From a phage, in sequence record PV419677.1: DNA of 64,000 bases. One strand, given 5' to 3'. Shown here piece by piece: positions 2,870-32,285 of this stretch (position 1 is its first letter; the number at the start of each line of letters is the position of its first letter). The notes below the pieces were generated by a model. That model was not told the origin of the DNA and did no database searches. It saw only the letters and a program-made list of their open reading frames with translations. Made by a program: the position numbers and the translations under genes.

Positions 2870-3814
2870 TTAATAAAATTCAGCAATATTTGCAGTTAGT
2901 TTAGACAGACCAGACTTAACAAAGTAAGGATAAACTTTACTTTTGGCTGGGATAACGTAGTTATTATATCGTTCTAAGATTGAAGCGGATATTTCCGCTG
3001 GGATAAAGTCCATATCAATCAACAATTGGTTTTCACAGAATCTATTATATTGCTCTTCTGTTAAAAGCGTTTTCAAAACGTCATGGTCGTAATAATTGAG
3101 TGCAATTTGTTCAAGCTCAGCAGCGCGGGTCGGTGGGGTGCGTTCACCTTCTTCACGAGTGTAATAAAAATCACCACGAACCTTGATGCTTGACACGTTA
3201 TCTTTTTTGTCACCTTTAACAACCTTTGTCACGCAATCCATAAGAGCATCGCCTGATTTAGTTTTGACATATTTTTTCTGCATCGGTGACCATTGTTTTA
3301 CCCCAGGGAATTTATGCAACTGGGTAAAGTCGCCATCCGAAGAAACAACCATAACCGGATGTCCGAGACCAGTGAGCAATTTCGTTAATACTGCAATATG
3401 GTCGTCAGCCTCAATTTTATCCATATTCATCACGATGTAAGGCATATGTTTTTCCATTTCATCAATGATGATATGCATGGCAGCGTGTAGACCTTCCCAA
3501 TCAAATTGTGACTCTTCACGAGCTTTTGCACGGTTTTTCTTATAATAATAAGATTTCGTGCGTCGCCAATAACCATTCTTCGAATTATCAACACAAATAA
3601 TTGGGACTGTATAACCGAGCTTTTTAAACTGTACAATGTTTTTTCTGATAGAGTTCAGAACCAGATGTCTGGTCATTGCGGTTGTCACCTTAGGGAAGCC
3701 CGCGTCTTTACCGAATTCCTGGAAGGCTGCTGCCATGATGAGCTGACTAAAATCGAGTAACTGAAAACCATCTTTTTGACGGTCTTCTTCAGGGAGTAAA
3801 AAATCTAAATTCAT
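2870..3814 (-). CDS. rnh: RNase H / 5'-3' exonuclease
   Basis: 314 aa; motifs YYKKNRAKAREES, SSDGDFTQLH as in T4 RNase H (305 aa). Confidence 0.9.
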   Translation of the reverse strand: MNLDFLLPEEDRQKDGFQLLDFSQLIMAAAFQEFGKDAGFPKVTTAMTRHLVLNSIRKNIVQFKKLGYTVPIICVDNSKNGYWRRTKSYYYKKNRAKAREESQFDWEGLHAAMHIIIDEMEKHMPYIVMNMDKIEADDHIAVLTKLLTGLGHPVMVVSSDGDFTQLHKFPGVKQWSPMQKKYVKTKSGDALMDCVTKVVKGDKKDNVSSIKVRGDFYYTREEGERTPPTRAAELEQIALNYYDHDVLKTLLTEEQYNRFCENQLLIDMDFIPAEISASILERYNNYVIPAKSKVYPYFVKSGLSKLTANIAEFY

Positions 3815-3871
3815 ATGAACCTCTGTTCAATTAGTTGACTCGATTATATTAGCATAAAATTTTTAAAGCAA

Positions 3872-3879
3872 TATAAATA
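3872..3879 (+). promoter_or_regulatory. late promoter (TATAAATA) for gene 34
   Basis: exact TATAAATA about 30 nt upstream of gp34 ATG. Confidence 0.6.
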
Positions 3880-3909
3880 CACGTATACCAATCAATAAGG
3901 ATAAAGCAC

Positions 3910-6900
3910 ATGGCCGATATTTTAAAACCAGCATTCAGAGCAACATCCGGTCTCGATGCGGCTGGTGAGAAAGTCATTAATGTCGCGAAAGCTGATTTCT
4001 CAGTTTTGTCAGACGGCGTTAACGTAGACTTCTTTATAGAAGAAAACACAATTCAACAATATGATGCAACACGCGGATATAAGAAAGATTTTGCAGTTAT
4101 CTATGATAACCGTATTTGGGTTTCCCAACGTGAAATCGCAGAACCAGCTGGCCCATTTGTTCAGCAATATTGGACCGCAACCCGTACTGACCCGAAATGG
4201 GAAACTGTTGCATCACCAACTCGTCAGCTTAGCTCCGGGGAATTTATCGCAGTCGACTCAGCTGCAAGCTTTACCACATTTACATTGCCTCCGAACCCGA
4301 CTGATGGTGATACCATCGTTATTAAAGATATCGGCGGTAATACCGGTTATAATGAAATTAAAATCCAGTCAAGCAACGTGCCTGGCCAAGGTAACCAAAA
4401 GATTGTTCGCTTTGGTAATCAGTATTCAGAAGTTTTAATTACCAAACCATTCTCTTATAACATGCTTATCTTTTCAAACCGCTTATGGCAATTTTGGGAA
4501 GCAGGTAACGAAGAACGTGGTATCAGAGTAGAACCGTCGACCGGACGTTTCCATGCACAAGCTGGCGACTTTATTATGCGTCGTTATACAACTGGTGCAC
4601 CGATTACTTTCATTCTTCCTAAGTATGCAAACCAGGGTGATATTGTCAAATCTGTTGATATCGATGGCATGGGGCCAACGTTCCACCTGATGGTTGAAAC
4701 CTTTGACACCAGTTCCAGTCTTGGTAAAGCTGGCCAGCATCAAATGGAATTCCGTACCACAGGTGATGGTTTCTTCGTTTATGATGCTGCCGAAAAACTC
4801 TGGCATGTTTGGGACGGTGATTTTAAAACTCGTCTTCGTGTTATTCGCGACAGCGTTAAACTTTTACCAAACGAAAGTGTCATTGTATTTGGCGAAGATA
4901 ACTCAACTCCGGCAACGATTAATATCGATTTACCAACGGATGTTTTGCAAGGCGATATTGTTAAGATTGCGCTGAACTATCTCCGTAAATCGCAGACTGT
5001 TAATATAAGAGCTGCTGTCGGCGATAAGATTGCAACTGACATTAAATTGCTGCAATTCCCTAAACGTTCCGAGTATCCACCAGATACAACTTGGGTGATG
5101 GTTGATTCATTGACCTTTAATGGCAACATCAGTTATACTCCGGTTATTGAATTATCATATGCAGAAGATGCAGTGTCTGGAACAAGTTATTGGGTTGTCG
5201 CTCAGAACGTCCCGACTGTCGAACGAGTTGACTCATTAAATGATTCCACGCGTACACGTCTTGGTGTTATTGCTCTGGCAAACCAGACTCAGGCAAACGT
5301 TGACCATGAAAATAACCCAGAGAAAGAACTCGCAATTACACCTCAGACTTTAGCCAACCGTGTTGCTAAAGAGAACCAACGAGGCATTGCCAGAATCGCA
5401 ACGACTGCCCAAGTAAATCAGAACAGTGATTTTGCATTTGTTGATGATGTAATTATTTCTCCGAAAAAACTCAATGAACGTACGGCAACAGAAACGAGAC
5501 GTGGGCTCGCAGAACTCGCCACACAGCAAGAAACCGATGCGGGTGTAGATGATACCACAATTATAACTCCAAAGAAACTGCAAGCTCGCCAGGGCTCAGA
5601 ATCGCTATCCGGTATTGTAACTTACGTTTCAACGACTGGTGCAACTCCTGCTGCTTCGCGTGAATTAAATGGTACAAACGTTTATAATAAAAATACGGTT
5701 AATCTGGTTGTTTCTCCGAAAGCTCTTGACCAGTACAAAGCTACTTACACCCAGCAAGGCGCGGTTATTCTTGCGGTTGAAAGTGAAGTAATCGCTGGTA
5801 CTTCTCAATCTGGCTGGGCAAACGCAGTCGTTACTCCAGAAATGTTGCATCGCAAAACTGCTCTTGATTCCCGTATCGGTTTAATCGAGATTGCTACTCA
5901 AGTTGAAACAGATGCAGGAACCGATTATACCAGAGCTGTGACTCCTAAAACGTTAAATGACCGTAAAGCATCAGAAACGTTAACCGGCATAGCCGAGATT
6001 GCTACGCAATCAGAATTTGATACTGGAACTGATGATACTCGTATCTCAACTCCATTAAAAATTAAAAATAGATTTAATAATACTGCTCGTACTTCTGTTA
6101 ATGCATTAAGTGGTTTAGTAGAAACAGGGACGCTCTGGGACCATTATAGCCTGAATATTCTTGAAGCAAATGAGACTCAGCGTGGCACAGCAAGATTAGC
6201 AACTCAGGGTGAAGTCAATACTGGCACTGACGATAAAACAATCGTTACTCCGCTTAAATTGATGTCGAAAAAAGCCACTGAAAACGCCGAAGGTATTGTT
6301 CGCATCGCGACAAACGCAGAAGCAACAGCAGGCACATCAAAAGTCTTGGCCATTAGTCCGTCTGCGCTGAAATATATTGCCCAAACGGAAACAACTTGGG
6401 AAGCATCTGAAACACTGCGTGGATTTGTTCGTTTATCTTCCGGTGCAGCTACTTCGGCCGCAACTACAACGACGGGCGCGGGATTTACATATGAAAATGG
6501 TGTGTATACCCCGGACCCAAGTAAACTGGTTAGCTATGCGAAATCTGGATATGCAGTTTCGCCTTACGAATTAAACCGCGTATTGCAAAACTTCTTACCG
6601 ATAAATGCGATGGCTGTTAATGCTGAAAAACTGGATAACCTCGATTCGACCCAGTTTATTCGTCGTGATATTGCTCAGACTGTTGAAGGTGTATTAACCC
6701 TTACTAAGCAGACAAATATCTCTGCTCCGGTTGTATCGACGAGCACTGCGGTGTTTACTGATGTAACGGCTGGTACTTCGACGTTCGGAACTGTGAATGT
6801 TGTTAATGGAACTAACAAGTGGAAAATCACTGCTCCTTCCGCCGGAACAACAATGACTATTGGCGATACGACTAACGTATTGACATTAAACACCGCCTCG

Positions 6901-29939: not shown

Positions 29940-30311
29940 TTATTCCTTAAAGTGTGCTTTCAACATCTGGTAAACGGTCCAGGCTTCGGAGTTATTAGAG
30001 ATGGTGATTTTAGTCAAAGGGAATTCGCTTGGCTCAGATGGAGCCGCGTCTTCGCATTCATCTTCAGTATCGTCATCTTTTTCTTCTTCAAAGAAATGGA
30101 ATTCATCTTCCTTTATGAATAGGCTCACAAATTCACCAGTTGATAATTCCATTTTATACACATCACCATCTTCAATTCTGACTGGTCTAAATCCCTCGCC
30201 ATTGATTATAGCATTGGCTATATTATCATTATCTGTGCATAACAAACGGAATCTGCTTTCAGCAACATTATCTTTAAAATAATACCACTTATCAGTTTCA
30301 AATTTAGACAT
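29940..30311 (-). CDS. hypothetical acidic protein
   Basis: 123 aa from ATG at 30311 (AAGGAG Shine-Dalgarno); acidic stretch EEEKDDDTEDECEDAAPSEPSE. Confidence 0.5.
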   Translation of the reverse strand: MSKFETDKWYYFKDNVAESRFRLLCTDNDNIANAIINGEGFRPVRIEDGDVYKMELSTGEFVSLFIKEDEFHFFEEEKDDDTEDECEDAAPSEPSEFPLTKITISNNSEAWTVYQMLKAHFKE

Positions 30312-30528
30312 TATAAATCTCCTTCCAAAAATCCGTACCATTTTCTGATTCTTCGCGGAACAACGCATAACTAGGTAATTTTGCGTCTTTGTCTGCATAC
30401 ACATAAATGATATCAGTGGTGCAAAGAAATTCATTGATGTTTTTCTTCACAATCACTTTATCACTTTCGGCAGTGTCCCAAAACTCTTCAGCGGTCAGGG
30501 AAGTGGTCACACAATCTGCATTAAACAT
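30304..30528 (-). CDS. hypothetical protein
   Basis: 74 aa; GAGGAGA Shine-Dalgarno. Confidence 0.5.
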   Translation of the reverse strand: MFNADCVTTSLTAEEFWDTAESDKVIVKKNINEFLCTTDIIYVYADKDAKLPSYALFREESENGTDFWKEIYNV

Positions 30529-30576
30529 AATATTCTCCTCATTGATAGGGCAAAATTACCCTATCATTTTTATAAT

Positions 30577-31131
30577 TTAGGCAAAATGGATATCAGCATA
30601 CTCAACGATAAAGCTCTCAGGAACAACCTTAAAGGTTCCAAGGAACACGATATTATACAGTTTGACACCTTCTTCAACCCACTGGTCTGTGATGTAACCA
30701 GACATGCTAGTGGTTTCATAAGTCGGACCATACATGCAATTGTATTCAAACGGTTTAGGTGAAACAAAAAAGACACCTTTGCCCAATTTCCATTTAAAAT
30801 CAACCCCAACATGAGACTGGTCAATGGTTTCAACGTCTTGAGCAATTACGCCACGGATATCATTGCTTTCGCACACATATCCATCATGGGATTCAACTTC
30901 CTCAGACACAGGAGCGATATATCCAGTAAATTCGGTTGATTCCAGGAATTTAGGATGCACATAAGCCAATTGAGTTTCAGTCTGACCATTTTTAGGAATG
31001 ATACGCACTTTAACTTCTTTAATTCCACCTACTAAATTAGTGCGAAGACCCACAACCTCAACAAAACGACCAGCAGCTTTAGAACGAGATTCTTTAGAAA
31101 CACGTACAATATCACCAGCTTCAACTTTCAT
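30577..31131 (-). CDS. hypothetical protein, paralog of 31211..31966 (shared C-terminal domain)
   Basis: 184 aa; C-terminus YITDQWVEEGVKLYNIVFLGTFKVVPESFIVEY aligns with GWVTDQWIEDGVELLNVVHAGEFTVVPRSMVVE. Confidence 0.6.
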   Translation of the reverse strand: MKVEAGDIVRVSKESRSKAAGRFVEVVGLRTNLVGGIKEVKVRIIPKNGQTETQLAYVHPKFLESTEFTGYIAPVSEEVESHDGYVCESNDIRGVIAQDVETIDQSHVGVDFKWKLGKGVFFVSPKPFEYNCMYGPTYETTSMSGYITDQWVEEGVKLYNIVFLGTFKVVPESFIVEYADIHFA

Positions 31132-31162
31132 AATTTTCTCTCTTGGTTAATAAGTTTATTCT

Positions 31163-31202
31163 CCAGTGGGGTCATTATACTCTGACCCCAAGAGTTTGTA
31201 CA
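31163..31202 (-). promoter_or_regulatory. early promoter cassette (type A)
   Basis: 44 bp identical to 20096..20138. Confidence 0.55.
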
Positions 31203-31210
31203 CTTTAAAT

Positions 31211-31966
31211 TTAATTAAAAATTTCAACAACCATAGAACGTGGTACAACAGTAAATTCACCAGCATGGACAACGTTCAGGAGTTCAACACCATCTTCAAT
31301 CCACTGGTCTGTTACCCAACCACAAATGGAACTATTAAATGGGCGTTTGATTTGAACTGGTTTGCATAACAAGTCAATAGGGTCACCCAGTTCGCTAACT
31401 TCTTCCAGCAGTACAGATTCACGCGGATAAAGGATAGCTTCAAGATTGTCACCTGATTCATTGACCGCAGTAAATTCAAAGATGCTTTGGTGATTGTGGT
31501 ACTTAACTGTTTTAACGGTAAATGGAGCAAATCCAAAAATACCTTTCAGTACCCGCCACCCGGCATGCATTGCAACAGTCTTTCCAAACTGACTGGCATC
31601 TTCAATAAGCTGATAGGTTTTACCAACTTTGATAGGAGTTTCTTCAACTTCCTTGAAGAGCTCAATCTCAGCTTCATAAACAATAATTTTTTCTACTTCA
31701 TTAGTATCAAGGCGACGTGCATGCAGAATATATGCGTTATAAAACCAGTTACTTTTTACAAAAGTTTCAACAATAAATTCACCTTCACCTAAAGCATCAG
31801 CCAGAGTATTATACCCAGAAATCATAGCTGCGTTTTGAGTAATAGGTTTAACCAGATGATAAGTTTTGTTAATTTCAATAGTCATATTTTGTTTCTCAAG
31901 TTTTAATGGTTTAATTGGGCGAACATACATACTTACAACATCAAAGTCAATAAATTCTGGTTTCAT
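31211..31966 (-). CDS. hypothetical protein, paralog of 30577..31131
   Basis: 251 aa; shares C-terminal domain with neighbour. Confidence 0.6.
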   Translation of the reverse strand: MKPEFIDFDVVSMYVRPIKPLKLEKQNMTIEINKTYHLVKPITQNAAMISGYNTLADALGEGEFIVETFVKSNWFYNAYILHARRLDTNEVEKIIVYEAEIELFKEVEETPIKVGKTYQLIEDASQFGKTVAMHAGWRVLKGIFGFAPFTVKTVKYHNHQSIFEFTAVNESGDNLEAILYPRESVLLEEVSELGDPIDLLCKPVQIKRPFNSSICGWVTDQWIEDGVELLNVVHAGEFTVVPRSMVVEIFN

Positions 31967-32223
31967 TATGCAACCTTATTGAACATCGCCAGTTGGTTAG
32001 GTTGTACAACCATAATTTCACGACGACCTTTTGCGTTTGACACGTTCAAGTAGATACCTTTGTTCATGTCTGTTTCTTTATCATATACCGCAATTTTATT
32101 GACAGTAAAGATTTTACCACGAATATTTGCAAATGCACATTCAAACGCTTCAGTCAGACCTGCTTCAGCAGCTTGAAGAGCAGACATTTCATATTGTTGG
32201 CCAATTTCAAAAGAAGTAATCAT
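31966..32223 (-). CDS. hypothetical protein
   Basis: 85 aa from ATG at 32223; upstream in-frame residues are translated leader. Confidence 0.45.
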   Translation of the reverse strand: MITSFEIGQQYEMSALQAAEAGLTEAFECAFANIRGKIFTVNKIAVYDKETDMNKGIYLNVSNAKGRREIMVVQPNQLAMFNKVA

Positions 32224-32229
32224 TTTGTT

Positions 32230-32285
32230 ATCCTCATCAGTAGTTGATGAGGTGATTATGTCTCTTTCCATTGGCCTTGTACACT
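32230..32285 (-). promoter_or_regulatory. early promoter cassette (type A) with leader stem-loop
   Basis: GTGTACA -35; leader CCUCAUCA-ACUAC-UGAUGAGG hairpin sequesters Shine-Dalgarno. Confidence 0.5.

Follow-up and report, generated by a model that had tools for sequence, protein, structure and literature searches.

The early protein MotB of bacteriophage T4 is abundant and binds DNA tightly and non-specifically; it is toxic when expressed alone, and on DNA it co-purifies with H-NS and StpA and alters the H-NS footprint (PMC6070864, PMC7827196). Patterson-West et al. (2021) found that MotB and MotB.1 differ in their N-terminal domains (NTDs) but have a C-terminal domain (CTD) in common, noted that one gene may stem from duplication of the other, reported 40 other phages with both genes and assigned the CTD of MotB as an OB-fold that could itself bind DNA (PMC7827196). 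The NTD of T4 MotB.1 has been described by Kim et al. (2025) as an LSm-like five-stranded barrel structurally related to GoF and Frd.2, a link that rests on structure and deep PSI-BLAST (PMC12152347). Here we analyse the corresponding locus in a 64,000-nucleotide stretch of phage DNA (record PV419677.1; the whole stretch is called the window), in which two tandem minus-strand open reading frames (ORFs) of 184 and 251 aa are, by homology and position, motB and motB.1, paralogous early genes of a Gaprivervirus-like T4-type phage. Since Patterson-West et al. already reported the pair, its paralogy and shared CTD are a rediscovery, and ordinary for T-even phages. An earlier note on this DNA had placed both ORFs correctly (Table 1) and picked out their common C-terminus; it left the named genes unrecognised, and their shared CTD had already been published.

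The 3.8-kb region holding the pair is 94–98 % identical to Gaprivervirus-type T4-like coliphages, for example pEC-M719-6WT.2, EAWsc9 and SP18. Its gene order (39 (topoisomerase), 39.1-like, 39.2-like Zn-ribbon, goF-like, cef, motB, motB.1, orf, dexA, orf, dda) matches that of T4 and SP18 across the gene 39–dda region, so that the window genes occupy the position typical of the MotB family, between dexA or motB.x and cef. The 184-aa ORF matches T4 MotB (NP_049626) over its full length (47 % identity, E 1e-54) and phrog_1671 (5e-68), and its counterparts in SP18 and JS98 are annotated motB. The 251-aa ORF matches phrog_2333 (8e-77); its SP18 counterpart is annotated motB.1, its homologues in Gapriverviruses are 89–95 % identical to it, and its residues 112–223 align with residues 2–115 of T4 MotB.1 at 36.5 % identity (E 1e-16, a value that includes the CTD as well as the NTD). 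Both ORFs pass the gathering threshold of the motB family PF17613 (25 bits). The 184-aa ORF does so at 168.6 bits (1.3e-49), the better of two matching stretches covering profile positions 65–161 of 162, and the 251-aa ORF at 35.3 bits, over profile positions 118–154 only. The basic KOW-like barrel (V.VS..SRSK.AG) is found in the 184-aa ORF and is absent from the 251-aa ORF, and for this reason we class the latter as MotB.1, a relative of MotB by its CTD only, and not as a MotB orthologue. Its own orthologue SP18_gp012 appears as a MotB homologue in the supplementary table of Patterson-West et al. (2021, PMC7827196). Like T4 MotB.1 (P39415/NP_049627; Category 2 of Patterson-West et al. 2021), it lies directly upstream of motB and shares the CTD with MotB.

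By comparing the two proteins with BLASTP under composition adjustment, we find a single ungapped alignment of residues 140–177 of MotB (nucleotides 30601–30714) with residues 211–248 of MotB.1 (31223–31336), in which 20 of 38 positions are identical and 29 are positive (E 3e-12); the remaining segments are noise (E > 5). Family profiles built from the homologues of each gene align over 40 columns with hhalign (99.1 %, E 2e-18). The resemblance extends to the coding DNA of the two CTDs, which share 48 nt at 79 % identity, 622 nt apart and including an exact 12-mer. No similarity was detected between the N-terminal parts of the two ORFs at sequence level, where hhalign probabilities stayed at or below 0.4 %. 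The C-terminal resemblance is thus far above chance, as confirmed by both alignments, and the earlier proposal of a common C-terminus of about 35 aa is sound as far as it goes.

Models made with AlphaFold2 (AF2) indicate that the conserved 38 aa are part of a larger unit, namely the last four strands of a five-stranded barrel of about 55–80 aa. The predicted strands are 119–131, 137–153, 156–163, 166–171 and 175–178 in MotB, and 203–206, 214–224, 227–234, 237–242 and 246–248 in MotB.1, with a short helix between strands 4 and 5 in both. The conserved segment corresponds to strands 2–5, preceded by a less conserved first strand (LGKGVFFVSP in MotB, LCKPVQIKRP in MotB.1). Structure prediction, which the earlier note had suggested, therefore gives the same CTD strand pattern in both proteins, in models of moderate quality. 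In these models the strand order appears SH3-like and would differ from that of the OB fold proposed in 2021, in which a helix lies between strands 3 and 4. Both CTD cores are acidic (isoelectric point (pI) 4.1–4.4; whole MotB.1, 5.0) and contain invariant D, Q, W, E, G, L and N residues, and 25 of the 43 invariant columns of the MotB.1 family alignment fall within the CTD.

The N-terminal parts, described earlier as unrelated, are indeed so in sequence; in the predicted structures, however, all are small beta-barrels, MotB having a single KOW-like one and MotB.1 a paralogous pair of the LSm-like type. At sequence level hhalign links the KOW barrel neither to these LSm-like barrels nor to the CTD (probability at most 1.5 %). 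Searches of PDB gave no chain at E ≤ 1 for the MotB profile and only chance-level matches for the MotB.1 profile. The likeness of these barrels to tandem small-barrel nucleic-acid factors (Spt5 KOW repeats, NusG/RfaH KOW, EF-P/eIF5A domain I and Tudor/PWWP/chromo barrels) is one of fold only, at a sequence identity of 7–20 % and with no sequence-level relationship to any PDB chain.

The window MotB resembles T4 MotB in its KOW-like NTD and CTD, in its position upstream of cef and in the conserved early-promoter hairpin upstream of the gene. It differs in being 22 aa longer, through an insert in the acidic disordered linker, and in having a more acidic CTD. In the alignment this insert (EEVESHDGYVCESNDIRGVIAQD) occupies residues ~76–98 (30838–30906, minus strand); several mosaic variants and MotB of the JS98 type have it too, while SP18 and T4 MotB do not. 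MotB homologues also alternate between two KOW sequence types, VRVSKESRSKAAGRF... and VAVSAASKSKVSGKK..., and together with the distribution of the insert this shows that MotB is itself mosaic. A candidate copy of the DxDV..MY motif of MotB.1 (see below) within the insert (SHDGYVCESNDIRGV) was rejected, as it scored 1.3 bits against a hidden Markov model (HMM) of the motif and was equalled by 26 of 1000 shuffles.

MotB.1 opens with a segment predicted to be disordered, whose conserved motif (IDFDVVSMY..P) recurs in MotB.1 proteins of ~180 aa and in the KOW-type single-copy proteins described below. Two barrels, D1 and D2, follow, and homology to the T4 MotB.1 NTD marks both copies as LSm-like (predicted local distance difference test score (pLDDT) 67–90 across the modelled barrels). 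In the AF2 models D1 has the element order strand–helix–three strands–short helix–strand, repeated in D2. Cleared of a contaminating sequence, the D1 profile aligns with that of D2 over 77 columns (hhalign 96.9 %, E 1.8e-10), and we regard the two as paralogous barrels on the strength of this match, D2 being of the T4 MotB.1 type. D1 is 50–68 % identical to the sole barrel of MotB.1 proteins of 138–183 aa; a barrel of this type is the only one in the common ~180-aa MotB.1 found in many Tequatroviruses. A GoF connection is seen weakly, with phrog_622, the family of the window GoF-like protein, matching MotB.1 residues 28–109 at E 0.008; as single-sequence hhalign queries, the window GoF-like protein and the 101-aa ORF upstream of motB.1 gave no significant match to the D1 or D2 profiles.

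Compared with T4 MotB.1, with which D2 and the CTD align and which has the same DPTDLL–CTD module, the window protein carries two additional elements, the N-terminal IDFDVVSMY motif and D1. It has 251 aa, compared with 143 aa in resequenced T4 and 119 aa in the T4 reference record. What is new here is the predicted arrangement of the Gaprivervirus-type MotB.1 as disordered motif, double LSm-like barrel and CTD. A second long variant of 245–250 aa (P0008, P0009, P0011, P0012, P0020, P0054, P0246) has a different extra N-terminal module of ~80 aa (MNTFDPNAKYIVTPY...) placed ahead of the motif, D1 and the CTD; against D1, D2, KOW, CTD, the 101-aa ORF and GoF this module reached 20 % probability at best.

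The length difference within T4 itself comes from the reference genome. In NC_000866.4, motB.1 has one extra G (CAATGGATTGGAAGATGG versus CAATGGATTGAAGATGG), which cuts the protein to 119 aa (13.8 kDa) without most of the shared core, the remaining CTD (EDGVELLNVVHAGEYSVVPRSAVVAILN) lying undamaged in a different frame. In the resequenced T4 genomes MT984581 and HM137666, MotB.1 has 143 aa and the full CTD, and in nine further T4, RB55 and RB59 records the match spans 600 nt compared with 601 in the reference. Kim et al. (2025) used gene synthesis, cited NC_000866.4 for their T4 sequences and obtained a 13.8-kDa MotB.1 product (PMC12152347). Their heterologous MotB.1 assays were therefore probably performed with the truncated form, lacking most of the CTD.

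An exhaustive HMM search with a profile of the CTD alone, a step the earlier note had recommended, found 34 cluster representatives among 1.84 billion proteins, which makes this a rare domain. Setting aside P0259–P0260 and P0263–P0267, which have several short matched stretches in much longer proteins, the CTD lies at the C-terminal end in all 25 CTD-bearing representatives examined. We grouped their architectures into three classes. Class A consists of a KOW barrel, a linker and a MotB-type CTD (core KLYNIVF); class B of the DxDV..MY motif, one or two LSm-like barrels, DPTDLL and a MotB.1-type CTD (core ELLNVVH); and class C of a KOW barrel, the DxDV..MY motif, DPTDLL and a MotB.1-type CTD. 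With tblastn the CTD was located at 1832 places in 925 phage records. Among the matches listed, Escherichia, Shigella, Salmonella and Yersinia phages and one Pseudomonas phage have two to three places each, compared with one in Klebsiella, Edwardsiella, Enterobacter and Raoultella phages.

The single-copy versions that had been suggested as a check are thus found. The class C gene is the sole MotB-family gene between dexA or motB.2 and cef in three metagenomic T4-like contigs (L005, L008, L011), in the Edwardsiella phage PEi26 (Kanagawavirus) and in the Klebsiella phage pzk-kv8 (Marfavirus); in a further contig (L009) it stands directly after dexA, and the contig ends past the gene. At the same locus, this single 'motB' has the KOW barrel of MotB together with the DxDV..MY motif, DPTDLL and ELLNVV-type CTD of MotB.1. 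It differs from the window pair in combining in one gene what the window phage splits over two, and it has no LSm-like barrel. Over 32-residue stretches of the core, T4-type MotB is 78 % identical to window MotB and 47 % to MotB.1, whereas T4-type MotB.1 is 84 % identical to window MotB.1 and 47 % to MotB. Overall, paralogous cores are 47–56 % identical, compared with 78–84 % for orthologous cores across genera. Since orthologues are closer to one another than paralogues, the duplication is old, with no recent gene conversion.

The most economical history that we infer from this distribution and these identities is duplication followed by N-terminal replacement. An ancestral single gene with the order KOW–DxDV..MY motif–DPTDLL–CTD, persisting in Edwardsiella, Klebsiella and metagenomic T4-like phages, would have been duplicated before the split of the coliphage T-even genera. 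The downstream copy, retaining the KOW barrel but not the linker motif, would have become MotB through divergence of its CTD, and the upstream copy would have become MotB.1 by retaining the linker motif and CTD while one or two LSm-like barrels took the place of the KOW barrel. The earlier suggestion of duplication and divergence, or domain shuffling, within an accessory locus agrees with the significant paralogy and with the location of the pair in the non-essential region between gene 39 and dexA/dda. By orthology, the window MotB would share the role of T4 MotB, binding the nucleoid early in infection and perturbing H-NS. Its basic KOW barrel would be the likelier DNA-contacting part, and the CTD core, which is acidic and has invariant aromatic residues, may be a shared docking or oligomerisation module, which could bring different nucleic-acid-binding heads to a common partner, KOW for DNA and LSm-like possibly for RNA. 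We favour the CTD as the docking barrel and the N-terminal barrels as the nucleic-acid heads because the KOW barrel is strongly basic and the CTD core acidic. Taking identity, architecture, history, mechanism and expression (see below) together, we put the probability of this explanation at roughly 0.85.

How the two genes came to share a C-terminus can be explained in other ways. The matching segment is short (38 aa) and the other protein parts cannot be aligned, as might be expected of a chance or compositional match between unrelated short ORFs. The composition-adjusted BLASTP and hhalign scores, the passing of the PF17613 threshold by both ORFs, a motif invariant in dozens of orthologues of each gene and the matching strand patterns of the two modelled CTDs leave this idea a negligible probability. 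The C-termini might also be alike because the tandem copies recently recombined or underwent gene conversion, for example via the nearby promoter-early stem-loop (PeSL) cassettes; T4 recombination needs only short homology patches, PeSLs promote shuffling (PMC2839356), and the CTD coding regions have the 48-nt similarity with its 12-mer. We reject it as very improbable, given that the paralogue cores within the window phage are 53 % identical compared with 78–84 % for orthologues between genera, that each CTD type has fixed residues of its own (KLYNIVF versus ELLNVVH), and that 79 % identity over a mere 48 nt does not speak for recent exchange. Independent capture, in which a mobile CTD module was fused separately to a KOW gene and to an LSm-like gene of the GoF family with no whole-gene duplication, has somewhat more in its favour. 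The N-terminal arrangements that precede the CTD are unrelated and at least three in number, the locus is rich in PeSLs and has LSm-like genes of the GoF family at a distance of two genes, and orphan CTD fragments exist, namely P0258 (43 aa) and a 29-aa RB69 peptide (PMC7827196). These fragments, however, look like deletion remnants, and the linker motif, DPTDLL and CTD travel jointly behind both KOW and LSm-like barrels, a pattern more readily explained if the N-terminal barrel was exchanged than if the CTD was captured. The C-terminal location in all 25 examined representatives points the same way, and we consider capture improbable. The metagenomic P0258 combines the first ~16 residues of MotB.2 (MKIYRVESSFSIL.YED) with the last 28 residues of the MotB.1 CTD and, from its sequence, appears to be what a deletion left of motB.1; the same may hold for the RB69 peptide, placed in 'Category 3' by Patterson-West et al. 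(2021).

The assignment of roles to the domains can likewise be turned round. If the CTD were a nucleic-acid-binding domain of the OB-fold or cold-shock type, both proteins would bind DNA through it and the N-terminal barrels would give partner specificity. The slightly basic CTD of T4 MotB (net +1) is in keeping with this, while the unit of linker motif, DPTDLL and CTD conserved behind different barrels points away from it, and we regard it as possible but rather unlikely. A bolder form of the docking proposal is that the CTD is a phage-specific SH3-like adaptor tethering interchangeable heads to a common host or phage partner, with MotB.1 as the RNA-directed counterpart of the H-NS-perturbing MotB and the published lack of MotB.1 activity possibly an artefact of the truncated allele; this we offer as speculation and consider unlikely. 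Several points weigh against the explanation that we prefer, namely old duplication with N-terminal exchange and a docking CTD. The function of the window MotB is carried over from T4 MotB at 47 % identity. Its DNA-binding domain is assigned tentatively from charge, an argument weakened by the basic T4 CTD, and the OB-fold proposal of 2021 points to the CTD instead. MotB.1 has no assigned function, and deletion of T4 motB.1 has no phenotype (PMC12152347). The AF2 models, made from family alignments, have mean pLDDT values of 75 and 73 and predicted template modelling scores of 0.41–0.44. Finally, the direction of the exchange is read from the distribution and the 32-residue identities, and alternatively a KOW barrel may have replaced an LSm-like barrel in the single-copy hybrid gene.

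PeSL cassettes of T4-type phages were defined by Arbiol et al. (2010, PMC2839356), and the 79-nt spacer between motB.1 and motB has the features of one. An early-type promoter (−35 TGTACA at 31202–31197, 17 nt, −10 TATAAT at 31179–31174; 10 of 12 positions) is the best σ70-type match in the 3.9-kb region, and its −10 is enclosed by a hairpin at 31161–31194 (−17.7 kcal/mol, z −4.2). The same promoter–hairpin layout is present in T4, and two stem positions have changed on both sides (GGGGTCA/TGACCCC in the window and SP18, GGGACCA/TGGTCCC in T4). In the wV7 record a promoter is annotated at this position. As in the PeSLs of Arbiol et al. (2010) and Comeau et al. (2014), the cassette is intergenic and belongs to a hyperplastic region, the stop codon upstream of it is embedded in AT-rich sequence, and a strong σ70-like promoter is combined with a GGGG...CCCC stem-loop overlapping the −10. 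The likeness is one of sequence and predicted fold, and promoter or terminator activity of this copy is putative. The earlier claim that each gene has its own promoter is thus upheld for motB, which would be transcribed from this PeSL-type early promoter. It does not carry over to motB.1, where the stop of the upstream ORF and the start of motB.1 overlap as TAATG at 31966. Because of this overlap motB.1 most likely shares the promoter of the upstream ORF, with which it would be co-transcribed from the TGTACA-17-CATAAT site (Table 1), a probable promoter of the pair. A hairpin downstream of motB was considered as an intrinsic terminator for the gene, which is unsupported, as the T-run lies on the non-coding strand.

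Table 1. Positions of the features discussed. Coordinates are those of the window unless a contig or genome handle is given.
Feature	Position	Strand	Basis or remarks
motB (184 aa + stop), MotB homologue	30577..31131	(-)	PF17613, phrog_1671, T4 MotB match
MotB KOW-like small beta-barrel, aa 1-66	30934..31131	(-)	basic, net +5, pI 10; residues 1-64 in the AF2 model
MotB acidic linker, aa 67-105	30817..30933	(-)	predicted disordered, pLDDT < 50; net charge -9
MotB C-terminal five-stranded barrel, aa 106-184	30580..30816	(-)	AF2, pLDDT 82-96
motB.1 (251 aa + stop), long Gaprivervirus-type	31211..31966	(-)	phrog_2333, SP18 annotation, T4 MotB.1 match
MotB.1 disordered N-terminal segment, aa 1-27, with conserved motif IDFDVVSMYVRPIKPL	31886..31966	(-)	pLDDT < 50
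MotB.1 LSm-like barrel D1, aa 28-110	31637..31885	(-)	AF2, pLDDT 83-90
MotB.1 LSm-like barrel D2, aa 111-192	31391..31636	(-)	AF2 element order as in D1; T4 MotB.1 NTD match
MotB.1 C-terminal barrel, aa 193-251, opening with DPxDLL element	31214..31390	(-)	AF2, alignment, BLASTP/hhalign
Intergenic PeSL-type cassette, 79-nt spacer	31132..31210	(-)	promoter scan, hairpin fold
Promoter-like site TGTACA-17-CATAAT	32255..32283	(-)	scan 9/12; upstream of small ORF overlapping motB.1 start
Hairpin between motB stop and cef ribosome-binding site	30543..30566	(-)	-14.3 kcal/mol, z -4.8
T4 reference motB.1	L001 (NC_000866.4) 3792-4151		spacer 3643-3791
Counterpart of T4 reference motB.1	L003 and L004 350-781		
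Long post-cef gene, PEi26 goF (255 aa)	L014 2959-3726		
Long post-cef gene	L005 1483-2235		
Long post-cef gene	L008 5791-6450		
Long post-cef gene	L011 5665-6381		

Two neighbouring ORFs probably begin further downstream than their first ATG. The first ATG of the 101-aa ORF upstream of motB.1 (31966–32271, minus strand) lies inside the TGTACA-17-CATAAT site, and phrog_17795 covers just its residues 17–101; judging by these features the true start is probably Met17 (~32223), giving 85 aa. A 164-aa ORF at 29940–30434 (minus strand) is a GoF homologue belonging to phrog_622 and is 34 % identical to T4 GoF from residue 44; here translation probably begins at Met42, which would give a protein of ~123 aa, like that of SP18 goF, and a short overlap with the cef stop. 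In phages with one MotB-family gene, the gene after cef has 219–255 aa. The GoF of T4 or of the window is roughly half as long, so some members of this family may likewise carry duplicated barrels.

While the finding of the pair itself adds nothing new, three by-products could be of use for work on host takeover by T4. The truncation in the T4 reference record bears on the reading of the published heterologous-expression assays of MotB.1. The linker motif, DPTDLL and CTD form a conserved unit, a sign of a common interaction function rather than of DNA binding. The single-copy hybrids provide a concrete model of how the pair may have originated, and natural chimeras with which the functions of the domains could be tested.

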